From a virus, in UHGV virus genome UHGV-0075529: a stretch of DNA of 16,505 nucleotides. One strand, 5' to 3'. The first letter of the stretch is position 1, and every line of letters begins with the position of its first letter. Below are positions 1 through 10,538 of this stretch, piece by piece. A model generated the notes under the pieces. The model saw only the letters and a program-made list of their open reading frames with translations. It made no database searches and was not told where the DNA came from. A program made the translations under genes and the position numbers.

Positions 1-20
1 AATTCAGTAAGCAGAAAGTC

Positions 21-44
21 AAAAGCCTCCGACCGGAGGCTTTT
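21..44. terminator. Bidirectional intrinsic terminator shared by yciA and the upstream convergent gene (tonB side)
   Basis: Stem GCCTCC (25-30) / GGAGGC (35-40), loop GACC, flanked by AAAA (21-24) and TTTT (41-44), so it reads as hairpin plus U-run on both strands; lies 5 nt past the yciA stop. Confidence 0.75.
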
Positions 45-49
45 GACTA

Positions 50-448
50 TTACTCAACAGGTAAGGCGCGAGGTTTTCCTTCAGGATCAACCGCGACATA
101 CTTAAATAATGCTTCTGTCGCTTTATACCGTTGCCCGATTGGTTCAGACGCTACTTTTTTCACCCACACTTCAATATTAATGCTGACCGATGTCGTCCCT
201 TTCTGGACACAGCGTGCATAGCAGCACACCACATCGCCGACCGCAACCGGCCGTAAGAAAGTCATTCCTTCAACCCGCACAGTCACTACGCGACCGTGGG
301 CAATTTCTTTTGCCAGAATAGCGCCGCCAATATCCATTTGTGACATTAACCAACCACCAAAGATGTCACCATTGGCATTGGTATCGGCGGGCATGGCTAA
401 AGTACGTAAAACAAGATCGCCCTGAGGGACGTTATGTGTTGTAGACAT
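50..448 (-). CDS. yciA: Acyl-CoA thioester hydrolase YciA (hotdog fold)
   Basis: 132-aa ORF recognised as enterobacterial YciA from the full sequence (MSTTHNVPQGDLVLRTLAMPADTNANGDIFGGW...); chromosomal, not phage. Confidence 0.9.
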   Translation of the reverse strand: MSTTHNVPQGDLVLRTLAMPADTNANGDIFGGWLMSQMDIGGAILAKEIAHGRVVTVRVEGMTFLRPVAVGDVVCCYARCVQKGTTSVSINIEVWVKKVASEPIGQRYKATEALFKYVAVDPEGKPRALPVE

Positions 449-580
449 GGTAAAACCGACTTAAAAGGAAAATCACAGGCGCGATGCTACTATGATTTTC
501 CTGAGGAGAACAGAGGAGATACAGCGCCAGCCCCGAAGGACTGGCAGTCTGGTTAGGATTTATCTTCCTGAGGCATAATA

Positions 581-750
581 CTTTAACGAGTTCTGCTTTA
601 TCGTGTTTTATTGCGTTTAAAATTATTCCCGCCCAAACCGCGCCGTTACTCACTTCATTGTTTATAACGCTTTAACGTGTTTTATTTTGTATGGTTGCAA
701 TTTACGTGTTTTGTGTACACTGCTGAGTACATGGCTCAGGGGTGTACACG
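581..750. repeat. Repeat-rich junction upstream of int (candidate attL arm sites and int promoter region)
   Basis: CGTGTTTT at 602, 676 and 705; CTTTAACG at 581 and 671; 8-bp palindrome GTGTACAC at 713-720 and again at 742-749, just before the int start. Confidence 0.3.
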
Positions 751-1932
751 ATGCTCACAGATACAAAACTTCGCAAGGCGCTTGGGAAGCGCAGAGAGAG
801 TGTGGAAGTTCTCTCAGATTCAAACGGGCTTAACGTGAGGTTAAGCATAACTGGTGGCGTAACTTTCTTCTACCGTTATCGCTGGCAGGGTAAGCCGGTG
901 CAGCTCAGCATAGGTGAATACCCAGCCTACTCATTAGCGCAGGCCAGAGACCGCAGGCAGCAGTTTCGCGCCTGGCTGAGTGAGGGTTACGATCCACGCC
1001 AGAAGGTTCTGGTTGAGAAAGCGGAAAGGATAGAGGCGCTGACGGTTGACCAGGCGTATGAGTACTGGGTAAAGCATTACTGCATTCCCGAGGGTCTGAT
1101 AAAAATCGATGCCAATACCAGGAGCTTTCAGAAGCACATTAGCCCGCGCATTGGCAGGGCGATGGTTGATCAGACAGTCAAGGCTAACTGGCTTGATGTG
1201 TTCGACGAGATGGGGCGTTCGGTTATTACTGGTGAGATGCTGTCATTAATGAAGCGCGCGTTCCGGTTCTGCCATAACCGAGGGGTGATTAAAAACAACC
1301 CGCTTGAATCCTTGCGCAGATCAGACGTTGGTATTGCAGCGAAGATGAAGGAGAGGCGACTCTCCGACGAAGAGATCAAAGTGGTTTGGGATACACTTTT
1401 CGCGCTCCCTCCATCACAGCAGCTTGTTATACGGTTCATGCTCCTGACTGGGTGCAGGGCTGCAGAAATAAGGAAATCGCGCTGGGACTGGTACAACTTT
1501 AATGAAAAGACCTGGACGGTACCGGCTGAGGATTACAAAACAGGGAAGACGATCAGGAGGGCATTGCCTGAAGTGGCGATCAGGCTACTTCAGGAGCATA
1601 AAAGAGGTTCGGTCACTAAGCACGTTTTAACACCGGCTCAGTTCCGAGATAAAGAAGACATTCCACCTACTCAGGCTCTGGTATCGACCTATTCCATGCA
1701 GGTGATCAGAAAGACAGACATGAAACAGTGGTCTCTGCATGACCTGAGACGCACCGTGGCTACCAGGCTGTCAGAACTTGGCGCGCCACCGCATGTTATT
1801 GAAAAGCTACTCGGTCATCAGATGGGTGGGGTGATGGCCAGATACAACCTGCACGACTATATGGATGATCAGCGCGAGTGGTTGGGTATCTGGCAGAATC
1901 ACCTGCAGAGCATTATTGGGTATCAGCTTTAG
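751..1932 (+). CDS. int: Tyrosine site-specific integrase (P4-like, N-terminal arm-binding domain)
   Basis: C-terminal catalytic motifs HDLRRT, LLGHQ and tyrosine in VMARYNLHDY; N-terminus MLTDTKLRKA typical of this family. The ORF track starts at GTG 742; first in-frame ATG is 751. Confidence 0.88.
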   Translation: MLTDTKLRKALGKRRESVEVLSDSNGLNVRLSITGGVTFFYRYRWQGKPVQLSIGEYPAYSLAQARDRRQQFRAWLSEGYDPRQKVLVEKAERIEALTVDQAYEYWVKHYCIPEGLIKIDANTRSFQKHISPRIGRAMVDQTVKANWLDVFDEMGRSVITGEMLSLMKRAFRFCHNRGVIKNNPLESLRRSDVGIAAKMKERRLSDEEIKVVWDTLFALPPSQQLVIRFMLLTGCRAAEIRKSRWDWYNFNEKTWTVPAEDYKTGKTIRRALPEVAIRLLQEHKRGSVTKHVLTPAQFRDKEDIPPTQALVSTYSMQVIRKTDMKQWSLHDLRRTVATRLSELGAPPHVIEKLLGHQMGGVMARYNLHDYMDDQREWLGIWQNHLQSIIGYQL

Positions 1933-2128
1933 AGGCGTTGACCTGCATTTCCCACGAAACGATCTCCGACTCTCTCCAGCGTTTTGGGTTGCCGGGGATT
2001 GTTGGTTTGGGGAAAGGGCAGGTGAAGCCAGCAGGCATTCGCTCCGGGGTGCTCCAGAAATACAGAGTGCTCCGGGAAATCTTATAGCGAGCCAGTACGT
2101 CACTGGTAAGCAGGATACTGTCATTCAT
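1913..2128 (-). CDS. AlpA-family DNA-binding protein (excisionase / prophage regulator)
   Basis: 71-aa ORF with the AlpA signature ...ISRSTLYFW...FPKPTIPG..KRWRESEIVSWE; SD GGAGA 6 nt upstream of ATG 2128; 3' end overlaps the int 3' end convergently by 20 nt. Confidence 0.65.
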   Translation of the reverse strand: MNDSILLTSDVLARYKISRSTLYFWSTPERMPAGFTCPFPKPTIPGNPKRWRESEIVSWEMQVNASKADTQ

Positions 2129-2141
2129 AGCTGTCTCCAGG

Positions 2142-2169
2142 CAAAAAGAAGCCCTCGCAATGGAGGGCT
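2142..2169 (-). terminator. Intrinsic terminator (minus strand) ending the long leftward operon, just upstream of the AlpA-like gene
   Basis: Stem AGCCCTC (2150-2156) / GAGGGCT (2163-2169), loop GCAATG, then a T-run on the minus strand (A-run 2143-2147 on plus). Confidence 0.6.
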
Positions 2170-2237
2170 GAAAGGGGGATAACGTGGCAGTGCATTAGCA
2201 CCCAATAGCCGACTCATTGAATCAGCTATCAGTTGCG

Positions 2238-2423
2238 TCATGACCGGTTGCGAATTTTATCCAGCCAATCAGGGTCCGGCCCCGCCGCATCACATACTTC
2301 AGGCTCTTCGAGAGCGTCACGAAATGCAGCTGCGACAATCTTCCCGCCCATAAACTCAAGCCCCGCACTGACTGGCGGCTCCTTGCCGTCTTCATACTCA
2401 AATACGAAAGTCATCTTTCCCAT
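2238..2423 (-). CDS. Hypothetical phage protein, 61 aa
   Basis: ORF with strong SD (GAGGAGAG) upstream of ATG 2423; last gene of the leftward operon before the terminator. Confidence 0.5.
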   Translation of the reverse strand: MGKMTFVFEYEDGKEPPVSAGLEFMGGKIVAAAFRDALEEPEVCDAAGPDPDWLDKIRNRS

Positions 2424-2432
2424 AATCTCTCC

Positions 2433-2672
2433 TCAATGCATCTGCATGGCTCTCAGCCGTTTAATGTGCTCGCTCGTCTCCAGTTCGGCGCGGATCTGCT
2501 CCGCCTCCCGGTGGTCAAGCGGTTCGAAATCGTTATTAAGGCGGTAGATTGATGCGTAACCAATCCTGCCATTTCTTCTGTAGCGCACGACATCATTCCT
2601 GACCCCTTCAATGATGACGGGCCACCCATGACGATCAGCGAATATCTGGCCGCGCTGGATTAGCTTGAACAT
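2433..2672 (-). CDS. Hypothetical phage protein, 79 aa
   Basis: ORF in operon context; start overlaps the upstream gene end by 38 nt, so the true start is uncertain. Confidence 0.5.
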   Translation of the reverse strand: MFKLIQRGQIFADRHGWPVIIEGVRNDVVRYRRNGRIGYASIYRLNNDFEPLDHREAEQIRAELETSEHIKRLRAMQMH

Positions 2673-3000
2673 TGGCTGACTCCTGCAAAATGAGGTAGAC
2701 GATTGCCACAGCGCGAAGCGGGTTCCGGTGAGTGGCGCTGATGCCAGATTCGTGCGATGCCTGCCAGACGGACTTGCCTGACGGAGCGAGCCCGATTCGA
2801 TGCTTCTTCATTGCCGGGTAAAGCTCTTCGGCGCGCCGCAGCGGGAAATAACCAGTGTTCTGTACCGTGTTAAACCAATTCCACGACAAATTGGCGCCGG
2901 AATTCTCGTGTGGATGAATGGTGGCGCTGTACTTTGGCTTTAGGAAATAGGCCAGCCTGACGCTAATCTCCCCATCACTCAGCTTGCTGTAATCCATCAC
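2635..3000 (-). CDS. Hypothetical phage protein, 121 aa
   Basis: ORF whose ATG (3000-2998) overlaps the stop of the upstream gene (ATGA junction). Confidence 0.55.
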   Translation of the reverse strand: MMDYSKLSDGEISVRLAYFLKPKYSATIHPHENSGANLSWNWFNTVQNTGYFPLRRAEELYPAMKKHRIGLAPSGKSVWQASHESGISATHRNPLRAVAIVYLILQESANVQANPARPDIR

Positions 3001-3221
3001 TTTTCATCCTCCAAATCATCCACTGCATCCATCACGTCAGCCCCGCGAATCATCTCGAACGCCCGGCAAGCCATCTCAAAACACAGCCGCTCATGTGGGT
3101 GGGGAGACTTCCAGTATTCGAACCCATCGCGATGCGAATAGCCCTGCATCGCGTAAAACTCCCCGGCAAGCTCTATCGCGGCATCTACCAGTTCGCGGTT
3201 GGTCATCACCTTTCCCATCAC
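2997..3221 (-). CDS. Hypothetical phage protein, 74 aa
   Basis: ORF with ATGA overlap to the TraR-like gene stop. Confidence 0.55.
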   Translation of the reverse strand: MMGKVMTNRELVDAAIELAGEFYAMQGYSHRDGFEYWKSPHPHERLCFEMACRAFEMIRGADVMDAVDDLEDEK

Positions 3222-3436
3222 ATCCCCCTCTGCTTATTCCGAAATTCCATCTCACCCTGGCAATCAACGCACATCGTGCAGCCCGGATACGCTTTCCGGC
3301 GAGCCTCCGGCAGTGGCTCGCAACATTCCTCACAGTGCGTTGCCGATACCGCATCACGGTTAATCCGGTGAGCACTTAACGCAGCATTACGCTGCAACTC
3401 TTCGACGGCTGATGCGTCGTCTGCAAAATCTGCCAT
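3218..3436 (-). CDS. TraR/DksA-family C4 zinc-finger protein
   Basis: 72 aa with CEECCEPLPEARRKAYPGCTMCVDCQ (CxxC-N17-CxxC), the signature of TraR/DksA proteins; SD AGGGAG upstream. Confidence 0.75.
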   Translation of the reverse strand: MADFADDASAVEELQRNAALSAHRINRDAVSATHCEECCEPLPEARRKAYPGCTMCVDCQGEMEFRNKQRGM

Positions 3437-3490
3437 GGTCAGTGCTCCCTGAACTGTTCATTGATGCGGCTGACGGCAAACGCCAGCAAT

Positions 3491-3536
3491 AAAAAAGGCC
3501 GCATTAGCGACCCGGTGATTTGTGCTGTCATGCGGC
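3491..3536 (-). terminator. Possible weak intrinsic terminator or attenuator (minus strand) between the 203-aa gene and the TraR-like gene
   Basis: 7-bp stem GCCGCAT (3498-3504) / ATGCGGC (3530-3536) with a long ~25-nt loop, followed on the minus strand by TTTTTT (plus A-run 3491-3496); the stop of the 203-aa gene sits in the stem. Confidence 0.3.
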
Positions 3537-4139
3537 GCGACCCGCCATTATTTCGGCCTTCTGCTCATCATCAAGGATGTCGTCAGATATAATCGCCACA
3601 CGGTTGCTCGCTGCCCATGAGACAGGCTCACTTTCTCGGATCGCCTTGTTCAGTGCATCAGCGGCATCAAGAACTGCTTGCGGAAGTGAGTAACAATCAC
3701 CGCCATCAGGAATTATTTCTTCGCAATGCTGCTCAACGTCGAAATATGGCGGGTAATTTGGTTCGCAGATCATCAGTTGGAGTTCGCCTGGCAGCACTGA
3801 ATTGTCCAGGCAGTAGTCAGCCAGCGAATCAAGGTCAAAGAAATACTGATCGCCATCGAAGAGAACGAGTGGCTCGCCCGCCCAGACTGCCCGCTCCATC
3901 TCGGAAAACTTTGTCTGGCGACTTTCTCGGTGACATTCTTCGCAGTAACCATGGGGGCTATGGATTGGGTGCTCTTCTGGTTTGTTTTTGCACTTCTGGT
4001 GCGTCGCGCCACACCACCGGGCCATGCGCTCGTCATTGCCCCAGAAGCGCCCGCCACGGTCTACCCACCCGGTCAAAGTCTGGATGCTGGCTGCTTCATC
4101 GCTGTCCATCATTACAATCTTTTCAGTTTTCATGCTCAT
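3528..4139 (-). CDS. Hypothetical phage protein, 203 aa, Cys/His-rich centre and acidic C-terminus
   Basis: Long ORF with ATGA overlap to the upstream gene; motif WCGATHQKCKNKPEEHPIHSPHGYCEECH suggests metal binding; no family recognised. Confidence 0.65.
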   Translation of the reverse strand: MSMKTEKIVMMDSDEAASIQTLTGWVDRGGRFWGNDERMARWCGATHQKCKNKPEEHPIHSPHGYCEECHRESRQTKFSEMERAVWAGEPLVLFDGDQYFFDLDSLADYCLDNSVLPGELQLMICEPNYPPYFDVEQHCEEIIPDGGDCYSLPQAVLDAADALNKAIRESEPVSWAASNRVAIISDDILDDEQKAEIMAGRAA

Positions 4140-4363
4140 GACTCCACTCCGTAGCGCCCATTCAGGCGACCAATTTCGCTGTTAAATTTGATAAGGCTGA
4201 TGCCTAGAGGCTCGACGATTTGGTGATATTTTCGGAGGATAGGCGGGACGACTTTATTCCAGTTCGGCTTGGGCTTTGTGCGCATCGCCGCTTTCAGTTC
4301 GTCACTGCATCGCCGGGCCTGAGAGTGCAAAGCATTCTCCTGTTCGGTGGTCATTCGCTTCAT
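4136..4363 (-). CDS. Hypothetical phage protein, 75 aa
   Basis: ORF with ATGA overlaps at both ends (Dam stop and 203-aa start). Confidence 0.55.
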   Translation of the reverse strand: MKRMTTEQENALHSQARRCSDELKAAMRTKPKPNWNKVVPPILRKYHQIVEPLGISLIKFNSEIGRLNGRYGVES

Positions 4364-4911
4364 GCTGCCTCCCGCCGGGCGATAAGTTTCGCTCCGAAAG
4401 TCATTAATACGTCGCGCTCCACGAAATTGGACTCGCAGTGTGTCCGAGGGAATGGCCGCCAGATGAGCAACATACTCCCTTTATTATTTCCCGATACCGG
4501 CTTACCGGTGACCGGGTTGATGAATTCCAGCCGCCCGGCAGTGATGAATCGAACCTCGCTCGCCGTCTCGATAGCCTCACGGAACCAGCCGACGGAAGTA
4601 TCAGCCGGAACCAGCATGACGGTGCCGATCTGATTCTTGCTCTCCGCTGCGGCTTTCTTCACGAATGGCGTGATGTCGCTGTAAGGTGGGTTGAGCCACG
4701 CATAGCCTGGAATGGTGAGGTAATCGGCCCACGGAGTTTCCAGCGTATTCTGCTCTGCGGTGATGAACTTGCGGCAGAGCGCGTTATGCGGCGCTGCTGC
4801 GGCGTCCAGTTGAAAGCAGAACTCTGCATCCAGCGCGGCAAATAGAGCCGGTGGTGTGCGCCATAAATCACGCTGATCTGCTGGCGTGTTACTTCCGGTG
4901 TAATCGGTCAT
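4360..4911 (-). CDS. dam: Phage-type DNA N6-adenine methyltransferase (Dam family)
   Basis: 183 aa with the catalytic NPPY motif (AWLNPPYSD) and overall phage Dam architecture. Confidence 0.8.
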   Translation of the reverse strand: MTDYTGSNTPADQRDLWRTPPALFAALDAEFCFQLDAAAAPHNALCRKFITAEQNTLETPWADYLTIPGYAWLNPPYSDITPFVKKAAAESKNQIGTVMLVPADTSVGWFREAIETASEVRFITAGRLEFINPVTGKPVSGNNKGSMLLIWRPFPRTHCESNFVERDVLMTFGAKLIARREAA

Positions 4912-8930: not shown

Positions 8931-9143
8931 CTACAACTCATCACGAATCTGTGAGAGTGTGCTGATCGCCTGGTAATGACCGCGACGCTGCTCTTCTGTT
9001 TTGAACGCGCGCATATCGTCTTTTATCGATGCGATTGCCTTATTCAGAACTTCCACTTGCGCTTCTTTAATCGCCTGTTTGCGTGGCTTCTGACGCTTCT
9101 TAGGAAGGTCTCTTAAACACGCCGGAATGTATGTCTGAGTCAT
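8931..9143 (-). CDS. Basic 70-aa protein, first gene downstream of pL (N position; antiterminator identity unproven)
   Basis: ORF with SD AAGAGGA; Lys/Arg-rich stretch LPKKRQKPRKQAIKEAQ near the N-terminus; position matches lambda N. Confidence 0.5.
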   Translation of the reverse strand: MTQTYIPACLRDLPKKRQKPRKQAIKEAQVEVLNKAIASIKDDMRAFKTEEQRRGHYQAISTLSQIRDEL

Positions 9144-9348
9144 AAAAAATCCTCTTGTGATTCAGCACAGCCCACTCAGCTTCGAATGGACTGGAATAAA
9201 TCTTTTTTTCGCTTTGCCATAATTGCCGCTCTCCCTGAGCCCGCCTATGGTCCGACGCATGGTTTACTGTCGCGCCGTTCGACTGACCGAATCTCCACTT
9301 CGCCGCTGGCTAACTTCGCTCAGCTGTCGATGTTTCGTTTCGATGGGG

Positions 9349-9466: not shown

Positions 9467-9490
9467 AAAAAAGCCCGCGCGATGGCGGGC
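9467..9490 (-). terminator. Intrinsic terminator downstream of cI (minus strand)
   Basis: Stem GCCCGC (9473-9478) / GCGGGC (9485-9490), loop GCGATG, followed on the minus strand by TTTTTT (plus A-run 9467-9472). Confidence 0.6.
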
Positions 9491-9510
9491 TTGAGGGGTT
9501 TTGCGTGAGG

Positions 9511-10188
9511 TTATGGGATGTTTAGTATTTTGGCATCAACCACAACGCCGATGATTTTGCAGTTTCCATTAATTTCTAGCATTGGATATGCGGGGTTAAG
9601 GGGCTTTAGGAAGCGTCTGCCGGCATCGATTACAAGCTTCTTAAAGGTCGCTTCGTTATCGCCTTCTAGCTTCGCGACAACCAGCTTTCCGTTGCGCGGC
9701 TCGACTTCAGGATCAACAAGTATCGCTGCTCCCTCGGGTATGCTCAGTCCAGCCGGGGAGGTCATAGAATCCCCTTTAACGTCCAGCCAGAATGAATCTT
9801 CTGAGCAGTCAACAGTCGTGTCATACCAGCGATCTATCGCTCTTCGGTGATAAGGTTCTACAGCTTCCATCCATTGCCCCGCGCTTACCCAGCTGATTAC
9901 AGGATAACTTCCTTTTGTCTCGTTCAGTCCTCGAAATGCAACGTTCGAAGGTTCTTCACTGGCGTGTAAAACATCCATCCAGCCAAAAGGCAGATCAAGC
10001 GCAGTTTCAATTTTGCGAGCCATCTTATCGCCGATATTGCGATGAGGGTTTGGTCCCAGTAGCTGGCTAAGCGCAGCCGGACTTGTCTCGATGAGCTCGG
10101 CAAACTGCGCTTTGGTCATTCCAGACTCGTGCTGACGCTTCTCGTACAGCGCTTCCAGGTTGGCTTTTCTGATTTCTTTATTTTCCAT
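9511..10188 (-). CDS. cI: cI-type prophage repressor (N-terminal HTH, C-terminal S24 LexA-like autopeptidase)
   Basis: Start taken at ATG 10188 (MENKEIRKANLEA...); C-terminal domain has the catalytic Ser in GDSM, a downstream Lys, and an Ala-Gly candidate cleavage site (SWVSAGQW). The ORF track runs to 10305 across the operators. Confidence 0.88.
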   Translation of the reverse strand: MENKEIRKANLEALYEKRQHESGMTKAQFAELIETSPAALSQLLGPNPHRNIGDKMARKIETALDLPFGWMDVLHASEEPSNVAFRGLNETKGSYPVISWVSAGQWMEAVEPYHRRAIDRWYDTTVDCSEDSFWLDVKGDSMTSPAGLSIPEGAAILVDPEVEPRNGKLVVAKLEGDNEATFKKLVIDAGRRFLKPLNPAYPMLEINGNCKIIGVVVDAKILNIP

Positions 10189-10304
10189 ACCTGCATTGTT
10201 ACTGCTTTTAGCAAAATGATAAATATGCAAATTGCTAAATGATGCTTGCGTAGTATTTAGCATAACGCTAAACTCCAAATCAAACGACTCACCCGGAGAC
10301 ACCA
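10189..10304. promoter_or_regulatory. OR operator triplet with divergent PRM/PR promoters
   Basis: 17-bp sites at 10207-10223 (TTTAGC-AAAAT-GATAAA), 10223-10239 (weak) and 10256-10272 (perfect TTTAGC-ATAAC-GCTAAA); PR candidate -35 TTGCGT (10246-10251), 17-bp spacer, -10 TAAACT (10269-10274). Confidence 0.7.
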
Positions 10305-10538
10305 ATGAGCACTGAACTACACCGCTGGCGCAAGGCCGCCACTACCGACGAATGGGCGCAGCTCGCAAAGTTGGCTAACACGACGCCAGGTTACCTGGAC
10401 CAGATCGCCTACGGAAATCGCCGGGCATCTCCAGAAATGGCATCTGCTATCGAGAAAGGCACGAAGAATTTTCACCGCCAGGCTCCGGTCCTAAAAGAAA
10501 GCCTGGTATTCGCATCGCCGCGTGATACTGCGGCCTAA
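10305..10538 (+). CDS. cro: Cro-like / YdaS-family HTH DNA-binding protein
   Basis: 77-aa ORF divergent from cI across the operator region; SD GGAGA 7 nt upstream; HTH-like segment EWAQLAKLANTTPGYLDQIAYGNR. Confidence 0.65.
   Translation: MSTELHRWRKAATTDEWAQLAKLANTTPGYLDQIAYGNRRASPEMASAIEKGTKNFHRQAPVLKESLVFASPRDTAA

Follow-up and report, generated by a model that had tools for sequence, protein, structure and literature searches.

A phi80-type excisionase gene behind a conserved terminator in a lambdoid prophage, probably of the put type, at Escherichia coli yciB

The DNA analyzed here is a stretch of 16,505 nucleotides from the UHGV virus genome UHGV-0075529 (the window, to whose first letter all coordinates refer unless another phage is named). 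It runs from chromosomal DNA of Escherichia coli into a lambdoid prophage, probably of the put type, that is inserted at the 3′ end of yciB, and its 71-aa minus-strand ORF belongs to the phi80-type Xis family, with only the fold and superfamily being of the AlpA type. In the reading that we consider probable, this Xis is the product of a pL-distal gene, and a terminator in front of the gene acts as a gate that is passed by polymerase modified by a put-type RNA. As judged from sequence, the gene and its layout appear to form a phi80-type module, another case of a documented arrangement. The new point is a portable, structured leader in front of xis, which may deserve follow-up.

The xis–int module next to attL

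Homology to prophage-free E. coli genomes ends within the 3′ end of yciB; attR lies outside the window. Related prophage sequence is present in 16 of 5426 complete E. coli genomes, and virtually the same prophage occupies this site in a few E. coli genomes. From the chromosomal junction to xis, the window contains the following features:

50–448, minus strand: yciA of the E. coli chromosome (Pfam 4HBT; annotated as yciA in the identical locus)
560–750, plus strand: P′ arm of attL and upstream region of int, with repeats; chromosome homology ends at 576
751–1932, plus strand: int, a tyrosine integrase of the phi80/P4-like type with Arm-DNA-bind_3 and Phage_integrase domains
1913–1932, both strands: tail-to-tail coding overlap of xis and int, exactly 20 nt from the ORF coordinates
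1913–2128, minus strand: xis, encoding a 71-aa phi80-type excisionase (recombination directionality factor, RDF), with an ATG start

Sequence searches place the 71-aa protein with the excisionases. It matches PHROG 1553 "excisionase" in a profile search (E 5.3e-29, residues 3–64) and is 59% identical to phi80 Xis in BLASTP (E 3e-26). With tblastn, the 65-aa Xis of phi80 and its relatives HK225, mEp237, and mEpX1 were found at 59% identity, and unannotated ORFs of Stx2a-converting and Klebsiella phages at 60–65% identity. Compared with the window allele, 16–19 diverged 71-codon alleles gave dN/dS values of 0.02–0.07 where dS was finite, and the xis protein is therefore under strong purifying selection. 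A preliminary description of this DNA had proposed the minus-strand ORF at 1913–2128; it is present as described, and both the dN/dS values and the PHROG 1553 match support it as a gene. The product of the same prophage in E. coli carries the PGAP label "helix-turn-helix transcriptional regulator". Excision driven by phi80 Int/Xis helper plasmids is in routine use (PMC2532685), which, by analogy, gives the function of this protein family an experimental anchor.

The same description had called the product AlpA-type excisionase-like, a name that holds at the level of fold and superfamily (a winged helix) and fails at the level of the Pfam AlpA model. AlpA (PF05930) gave no match to the window protein even at E ≤ 10, and the protein did not reach the threshold for HTH_17. 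Among 23 relatives, four matched PF05930 weakly (E 0.16 or worse), and 14 showed sub-threshold matches to HTH_17 (best E 0.0054). An AlphaFold model (23 homologues as input, pLDDT 80) predicts the order strand–helix–helix–wing–helix, consistent with the MerR-like winged-helix fold of AlpA/Xis proteins. Structural matches of the model include RdfS, a putative Klebsiella excisionase (2kvv), and MerR-family DNA-binding domains, as well as P2 Cox, Pukovnik Xis, TorI, and lambda/HK022 Xis; Foldseek returned similar kinds of proteins, with weak E-values. Identity to the AlpA family/GIsul2 excisionase (PDB 8c3t) is 22%, and unlike these proteins, the family of the 71-aa protein has an insertion of its own in the wing, TPxRMPAxFxxPFPKP. 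Sequence similarity to TorI of KplE1 is not detectable.

The int ORF has its first in-frame start, a GTG, at 742, and the ATG annotated by PGAP in the identical prophage corresponds to 751. Its product is 50% identical to phi80 Int over the full length (E 2e-152). That xis and int converge and share 20 nt, as had been proposed, is borne out by the ORF coordinates. Protein similarity searches supplied 80 related loci in viral contigs and 21 in genomes of Enterobacterales outside this genus; a convergent tyrosine integrase overlaps xis by 20–110 nt in 57 of the 61 loci with a scorable downstream neighbor. The overlap is 20 nt in the clade of the 71-aa protein, where it was found in 23 related loci, and 41, 47, 53, 104, or 110 nt in clades with a C-terminally extended Xis. 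In an Stx2a-converting phage, int (396–1679, plus strand) and xis (1643–1885, minus strand) overlap by 37 nt, and this xis is preceded by a hairpin, a U-tract, CTGGAGA, and its ATG. The convergent, overlapping layout is already known and is usual for the phi80-type family.

In phi80 itself (X04051, JX871397), as in the window, xis lies distally in the leftward early region and int lies on the opposite strand by the att core. The distance from core to int is 169–185 nt in phi80 and about 175 nt in the window (from the junction at 576 to int at 751). The xis and int genes of phi80 and HK225 are annotated as convergent with an overlap of 4 nt, compared with 20 nt in the window, and the attachment site of these phages is yciI rather than yciB. 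An inverted int next to attL is a difference from lambda that is known for phi80 and has been analyzed experimentally in Phi24B and KplE1. The inverted int of Phi24B is transcribed from a separate promoter that CI does not control. Its xis adjoins the 3′ end of int and is left under the control of pL and CI; excisionase function was demonstrated experimentally (PMC3064807). Phi24B has in common with the window an int inverted relative to lambda and a xis at the int 3′ end that is oriented like lambda xis. Phi24B Xis was not among the homologues retrieved for the 71-aa protein. For KplE1, an overlap of the int promoter with attL has been shown, and both Int and the RDF repress this promoter (PMC2951348).

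The region upstream of int in the window contains three direct repeats of TTAaCGTGTTTT (598–609, 672–683, and 701–712) and a 15-nt inverted repeat at 713–749, between attL and the int start. In the phi80 record, a "possible promoter for int" adjoins the attP core; a consensus promoter scan of the window returned nothing above threshold for int. We infer the expression signals of int from the geometry on the attL side, which, by analogy, would fit an uncoupled, attL-proximal integrase.

Terminator and leader in front of xis

The region upstream of xis contains a Shine–Dalgarno (SD) sequence, an intrinsic terminator, and two further hairpins, all read on the minus strand; another terminator-like site lies farther upstream in the same operon:

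2134–2138, minus strand: SD sequence GGAGA of xis, inside the conserved motif GCCTGGAGA; invariant in the leader alignment
2140–2169, minus strand: intrinsic terminator with a 7-bp GC-rich stem (2150–2169) and a U-tract (2140–2149)
2190–2201, minus strand: leader hairpin 2, GUGC-UAAU-GCAC, from folding; GAAA or GAAU loop in relatives
2202–2232, minus strand: leader hairpin 1, 14 bp with G.U pairs, starting just past the upstream stop codon
2238–2423, minus strand: 61-aa accessory gene of unknown function (PHROG 3876), the final early-left gene ahead of the leader
3496–3513, minus strand: second intrinsic terminator-like site in the early-left operon, GGGTCGC-TAAT-GCGGCCT followed by TTTTTTATTGC

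The terminator hairpin AGCCCTC-CATTGC-GAGGGCT (2169 to 2150) is followed by TCTTTTTGCC / UCUUUUUGCC (2149 to 2140) and by itself has a predicted energy of −11.8 kcal/mol. Positions 1–4500 contain seven terminator-like patterns, compared with 4.2 ± 2.1 in shuffled sequences; a single-sequence pattern is not significant alone, and we judge the terminator before xis to be real because it is conserved among relatives. In 30 of 34 distinct leaders that share the SD context of xis, a hairpin of −10 to −16 kcal/mol is directly followed by a U-tract and sits 21–25 nt before the ATG; two leaders are degenerate. The leader terminators use 17 stem/loop sequences, such as CCCUC/GAGGG, CCCGGC/GCCGGG, and GACCUGC/GCAGGUU (tabulated from per-sequence folds; MAFFT misaligned the terminator stems). 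Conservation of the hairpin through 17 stem variants points to a selected, strand-specific terminator. The roughly 21 nt between hairpin and ATG leave no room for a promoter, and all xis transcripts must therefore pass the terminator from upstream. In addition, promoter prediction gave no sigma-70-like site on the minus strand from 3547 to the xis start. The hairpin with its U-tract, the GGAGA, and their conservation in relatives thus agree with the preliminary description, which had placed a terminator and an SD sequence ahead of xis, and the short gap supports the first of the two routes to xis expression that it had named, read-through of this terminator from the leftward operon or an unrecognized promoter.

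In phi80, the corresponding position has a weak 4-bp hairpin without a U-tract, compared with the full terminator of the window, and such a terminator is therefore not obligatory in the phi80-type module. The available part of the Phi24B paper does not describe a terminator or leader before xis (PMC3064807). A bidirectional terminator that also stops int transcripts was rejected for the window, because no T-tract follows the hairpin on the plus strand. Rahnella-type loci have an int-sense terminator at the corresponding place. The 17-mer TTCTTTTTGCCTGGAGA proved unsuitable for recognizing the leader: by itself it is a generic terminator-plus-SD sequence rather than a homologous element, and it also occurs after GC hairpins before endolysin and other genes in high-GC phages.

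The terminator is part of a leader of about 110 nt (2129–2237) made up, in order, of hairpin 1, hairpin 2, a C/U-rich spacer in which AYCCC is conserved, the terminator, and GCCUGGAGA. This leader is conserved as a block from the upstream stop codon to the xis ATG, and the upstream gene differs between loci. Hairpin 1 has 11–14 bp in relatives, with several G.U pairs. Read in the sense of xis, ten variants of it fold with −13.8 to −20.1 kcal/mol, versus −2.1 to −11.0 kcal/mol for the opposite strand, and double compensatory changes occur at two pairs, in five and six sequences. The commonest hairpin-1 29-mer is present in at least 120 viral contigs. Among the matches listed, a downstream ORF could be called in 108 contigs, and in 81 of these the product encoded behind the leader is an RDF, with at least six PHROG families represented: phrog_539 (46), phrog_2907 (18), phrog_629 (lambda-type Xis; 8), phrog_478 (4), phrog_1553 (4), and phrog_5914 (1). 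The xis genes in these listed matches include P22-type, TorI-like, and AlpA-like members. Again among the matches listed, int follows the leader-borne xis on the same strand in most loci, as in lambda, and is convergent with it only in the phi80 type and one other type. By these sequence comparisons, the terminator-bearing leader appears to be a portable pre-xis cassette that is independent of int orientation, which speaks directly against a special coupling that depends on convergent genes. The special coupling that had been suggested for this locus is also countered by the occurrence of the same leader before lambda-type, P22-type, and other xis genes with a co-directional int.

The cassette is rare in E. 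coli, with 39 of 5426 complete genomes carrying it. Records of cultured phages contain it hardly at all, and it is absent from lambda, which has no such leader before xis. An Rfam search gave no gathering-score match over the whole window and only chance-level matches (E 0.55 or higher) in 1800–2500. A 38-codon ORF (2125–2241) spans the leader of the window with ATGA overlaps at both ends; a leader peptide with translational attenuation was rejected, since the start codon and frame of this ORF are not conserved among 26 distinct leaders. We offer only tentatively, and with more doubt than confidence, the idea that the leader, with its RNA-specific hairpin 1 and its small GNRA-type hairpin 2, is an RNA element in its own right that has so far gone undescribed in lambdoid prophages of enterobacteria and that is carried as a cassette before six or more excisionase families unrelated to one another. 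Beyond passive termination, it could act as a processing site or a gate for dosage and so fix the yield of Xis per pL transcript, or transcripts ending at the terminator could give rise to a 3′-end-derived small RNA.

The left operon and the proposed control of excision

The xis gene is the last gene of a co-directional leftward operon of about 7.2 kb that starts at the CI-controlled pL region, with contiguous minus-strand ORFs running from 9143 down to 1913. This early-left block on the minus strand includes DUF4222, NinX-like, and TraR/DksA-like genes, a gene in the methyltransferase position, and genes for an exonuclease, RecT, and a Gam-like protein. Beyond it lie the genes for the CI-like repressor, Cro-like and CII-like genes, and replication genes. 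Two features at the start of the operon bear on its transcription:

9209–9277, minus strand: putL-like antiterminator RNA in the pL leader, about 95% identical to HK639; two stem-loops predicted
9511–10305, minus strand: gene for a CI-like repressor of the LexA/S24 type (PHROG 4 "transcriptional repressor", E 1.5e-50)

To the left of the repressor gene, whose terminator is at 9471–9492, the window contains operator-like repeats and a 215-nt leader ahead of the first early-left ORF. This pL leader is 97% identical to that of HK225 and 95% identical to that of HK639 over 144 nt, a match that takes in the putative pL together with the initial 69 nt of an annotated "putL-like antiterminator RNA" (HM208537). 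HK639 and the window are thus alike in the promoter-proximal part: of the 126 nt annotated in the HK639 feature, the first 69 alone are conserved, and the 3′ part differs. The conserved 69 nt are predicted to form two adjacent stem-loops, as HK022 put RNAs do. With the put RNA of HK022, polymerase resists intrinsic and rho-dependent terminators for at least 10 kb without a phage protein (PMC9378689). On the basis of this resemblance, antitermination in the prophage is probably mediated by a put-type RNA in place of N. No N homologue was recognized in a profile search of the window genes, and the ORF in the N position (8931–9143, 70 aa) belongs to a PHROG of unknown function. With an HK639-type putL-like RNA in the pL leader, the N-position protein, which the preliminary description had brought into its account of read-through, is probably irrelevant.

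These elements suggest how excision would be controlled. In the lysogen, the CI-like repressor would shut pL and hence keep xis silent, the terminator would halt stray leftward transcription so that no Xis is made, and low amounts of Int would come from a separate int promoter located in the P′ arm of attL. Upon induction, the put RNA would make pL polymerase resistant to termination, both terminators would be passed, and xis would be transcribed; Xis, Int, and host factors would then excise the prophage. The terminator before xis would accordingly be a gate open to pL-derived, put-modified polymerases only. Leftward transcripts would run on antisense through int and across attL and, as we infer purely from this layout, would probably damp late Int synthesis. 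No convincing leftward terminator was found just past xis on the minus strand of the window (z −0.78), unlike in phi80, where a putative one is annotated just after xis; xis transcripts would therefore continue antisense into int, in support of the earlier suggestion that they are antisense to the int 3′ end. A put-modified polymerase would ignore a terminator after xis in any case.

The preliminary description had also held that this arrangement couples excision to early transcription differently from lambda. In lambda, xis is located late in a CI-repressed leftward operon and is reached by antiterminated polymerase only (PMC9378689, PMC2951348); the same would hold for the window. The xis of the window is co-directional with this operon and distal in it, with terminators in between, which is lambda logic and speaks against the proposed difference. 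By analogy, the control of Xis would thus be lambda-like, as that of the last pL gene behind terminators, and int alone would be uncoupled. The differences from lambda lie elsewhere. Antitermination in lambda uses N and nut and, judging by sequence similarity, is probably RNA-mediated and put-like in the window. Furthermore, int is on the opposite strand and is not co-transcribed with xis from pL, so that there is neither a pI inside xis nor sib retroregulation.

TorI, P4 Vis, P2 Cox, and 186 Apl repress int or early promoters, and the 71-aa protein might likewise act mainly or additionally as a transcription regulator, either of the int promoter or an early promoter or of RNA polymerase, like Pseudomonas aeruginosa AlpA. 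The PGAP name, the MerR-like winged helix common to regulators, and the direct and inverted repeats between attL and the int start are all compatible with such a role, as are the repression of intS by TorI (PMC2951348) and the antitermination activity that an abstract reports for P. aeruginosa AlpA (PMC7969949). We nevertheless regard it as unlikely: an excisionase, phi80 Xis, is the closest characterized relative, strict linkage of the gene to int holds in all clades, and no regulator-specific features were found in the 71-aa protein. Moreover, if the protein had both functions, the main explanation would be broadened but would still stand.

Transcription of xis from its own promoter upstream of the terminator, with the leader as an attenuator that is regulated by protein, RNA, or translation and decides whether Xis is made, and with pL and put not the relevant signal, has a still smaller chance of being correct. 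No promoter-like site is predicted near the leader, and the conserved block begins at the stop codon of variable genes, which leaves no conserved promoter ahead of it. The structure of the leader (hairpins, G.U pairs, and compensatory changes) and its travel with many xis families would suit an attenuator, as would the 38-codon ORF with its ATGA overlaps across the window leader (2125–2241), but the start and frame of this ORF vary among relatives, a conserved alternative (antiterminator) pairing is not evident, and Rfam has no matching family. By far the least credible alternative is that the hairpin merely ends the early-left operon and that xis is a silent, unexpressed remnant. An efficient-looking terminator (GC stem, 6 U in 8) and the rarity of the prophage, with related sequence in only 16 of the 5426 genomes, could be read in this way. 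Such a remnant is difficult to reconcile with strong purifying selection on xis, a perfectly conserved SD and start context, the putative antitermination element in the operon, and a terminator–SD–xis design that is seen again in Stx2a-converting phages as well as in viral contigs and prophages from other genera.

Implications for the phi80-type module and its relatives

The gene can be annotated as a phi80-type excisionase rather than as an "HTH transcriptional regulator", and the prophage could be labeled a put-type lambdoid at yciB; for annotation, otherwise little changes. If xis is controlled as a terminator-gated, pL-distal gene, the layout would explain how the prophage keeps Int available while its stability depends on silencing xis alone. 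Stx2a-converting phages also carry this module with a pre-xis terminator, and in them the control of excision is relevant to how toxin phages spread. The pre-xis leader is also a convenient sequence tag for finding unannotated xis genes and, if it does more than terminate transcription, would represent a common control point of excision across many Enterobacterales prophages.

Leader cassette upstream of xis

The excisionase gene (xis) of the prophage is preceded by a structured leader, which is spanned by a small open reading frame.

2129-2237, minus strand: structured pre-xis leader, comprising hairpin 1, hairpin 2, a C/U-rich spacer, a terminator and an SD
2125-2241, minus strand: 38-codon ORF over the entire leader

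The leader is a portable cassette. It is present in at least 120 viral contigs (loci L107-L226), and among the contigs listed, the excisionase genes downstream of it belong to at least six PHROG families and int is mostly co-directional. Lambda lacks the cassette, E. coli seldom carries it, and the leader has no match in Rfam. The ATG of the 38-codon ORF shares an ATGA with the stop of the upstream gene, and its own stop shares another ATGA with the xis ATG; in the relatives, neither the frame nor the start of this ORF is conserved. Gene callers at times join the leader ORF to xis, which yields 107-aa products such as protein P0006.

Int-xis modules of related phages

Unannotated Stx2a-converting phages share the int-xis module, as exemplified by LC727855 (L324, 396-1940).

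396-1679, plus strand: int of LC727855
1643-1885, minus strand: Xis of LC727855, 80 aa, 60% identical

The two genes overlap by 37 nt in LC727855, and a terminator (CCGCC-TTCG-GGCGG-TTTTT) and an SD (CTGGAGA) lie upstream of xis. Xis proteins of other clades carry a C-terminal extension of 20-35 residues (L006-L009, L015, L019-L022, L075-L102), whose coding sequence is located wholly antisense inside the 3' end of int, so that the genes overlap by 104-110 nt; the same DNA therefore encodes both proteins, on opposite strands. In Rahnella-type loci (L007, L009, L078), the hairpin that lies ~60-90 nt upstream of xis has the sequence AAAAAACCCCGGAAACGGGGTTAT, and is thus a terminator for the int-sense strand and not for leftward transcription.

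Insertion site and int upstream region

Homology to the chromosome stops at 576, within the yciB 3' end. Between this point and int, we found two sets of repeats.

598-609, 672-683 and 701-712: three direct repeats TTAaCGTGTTTT
713-727 / 735-749: 15-nt inverted repeat adjoining the int start codon

The direct repeats are candidate Int arm sites, and the inverted repeat may serve as an operator or form a hairpin in the 5' UTR. This prophage occupies yciB. The attP of HK225 is annotated as similar to the yciI gene (L106, 3372-3388), and phi80 has the same int-xis module. The yciB and yciI genes are ~2 kb apart, with tonB and yciA between them, and the 50%-identical integrases therefore target neighbouring loci.

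Early-left operon and probable antitermination

Three further features were identified in the early-left region.

3574-3547, minus strand: promoter-like site TTGATG-16-AATAAT in an intergenic gap of the early-left operon
3513-3496, minus strand: terminator-like hairpin directly after this site
8931-9143: 70-aa ORF at the N position (PHROG 5305, a family without assigned function)

The pL leader (9209-9346, minus strand) is 97% identical to HK225 and ~95% identical to the HK639 pL region, the matching part of which takes in the first 69 nt of a feature annotated as "putL-like antiterminator RNA". Because of this sequence resemblance, antitermination in the prophage is probably RNA-mediated, of the HK022 type.
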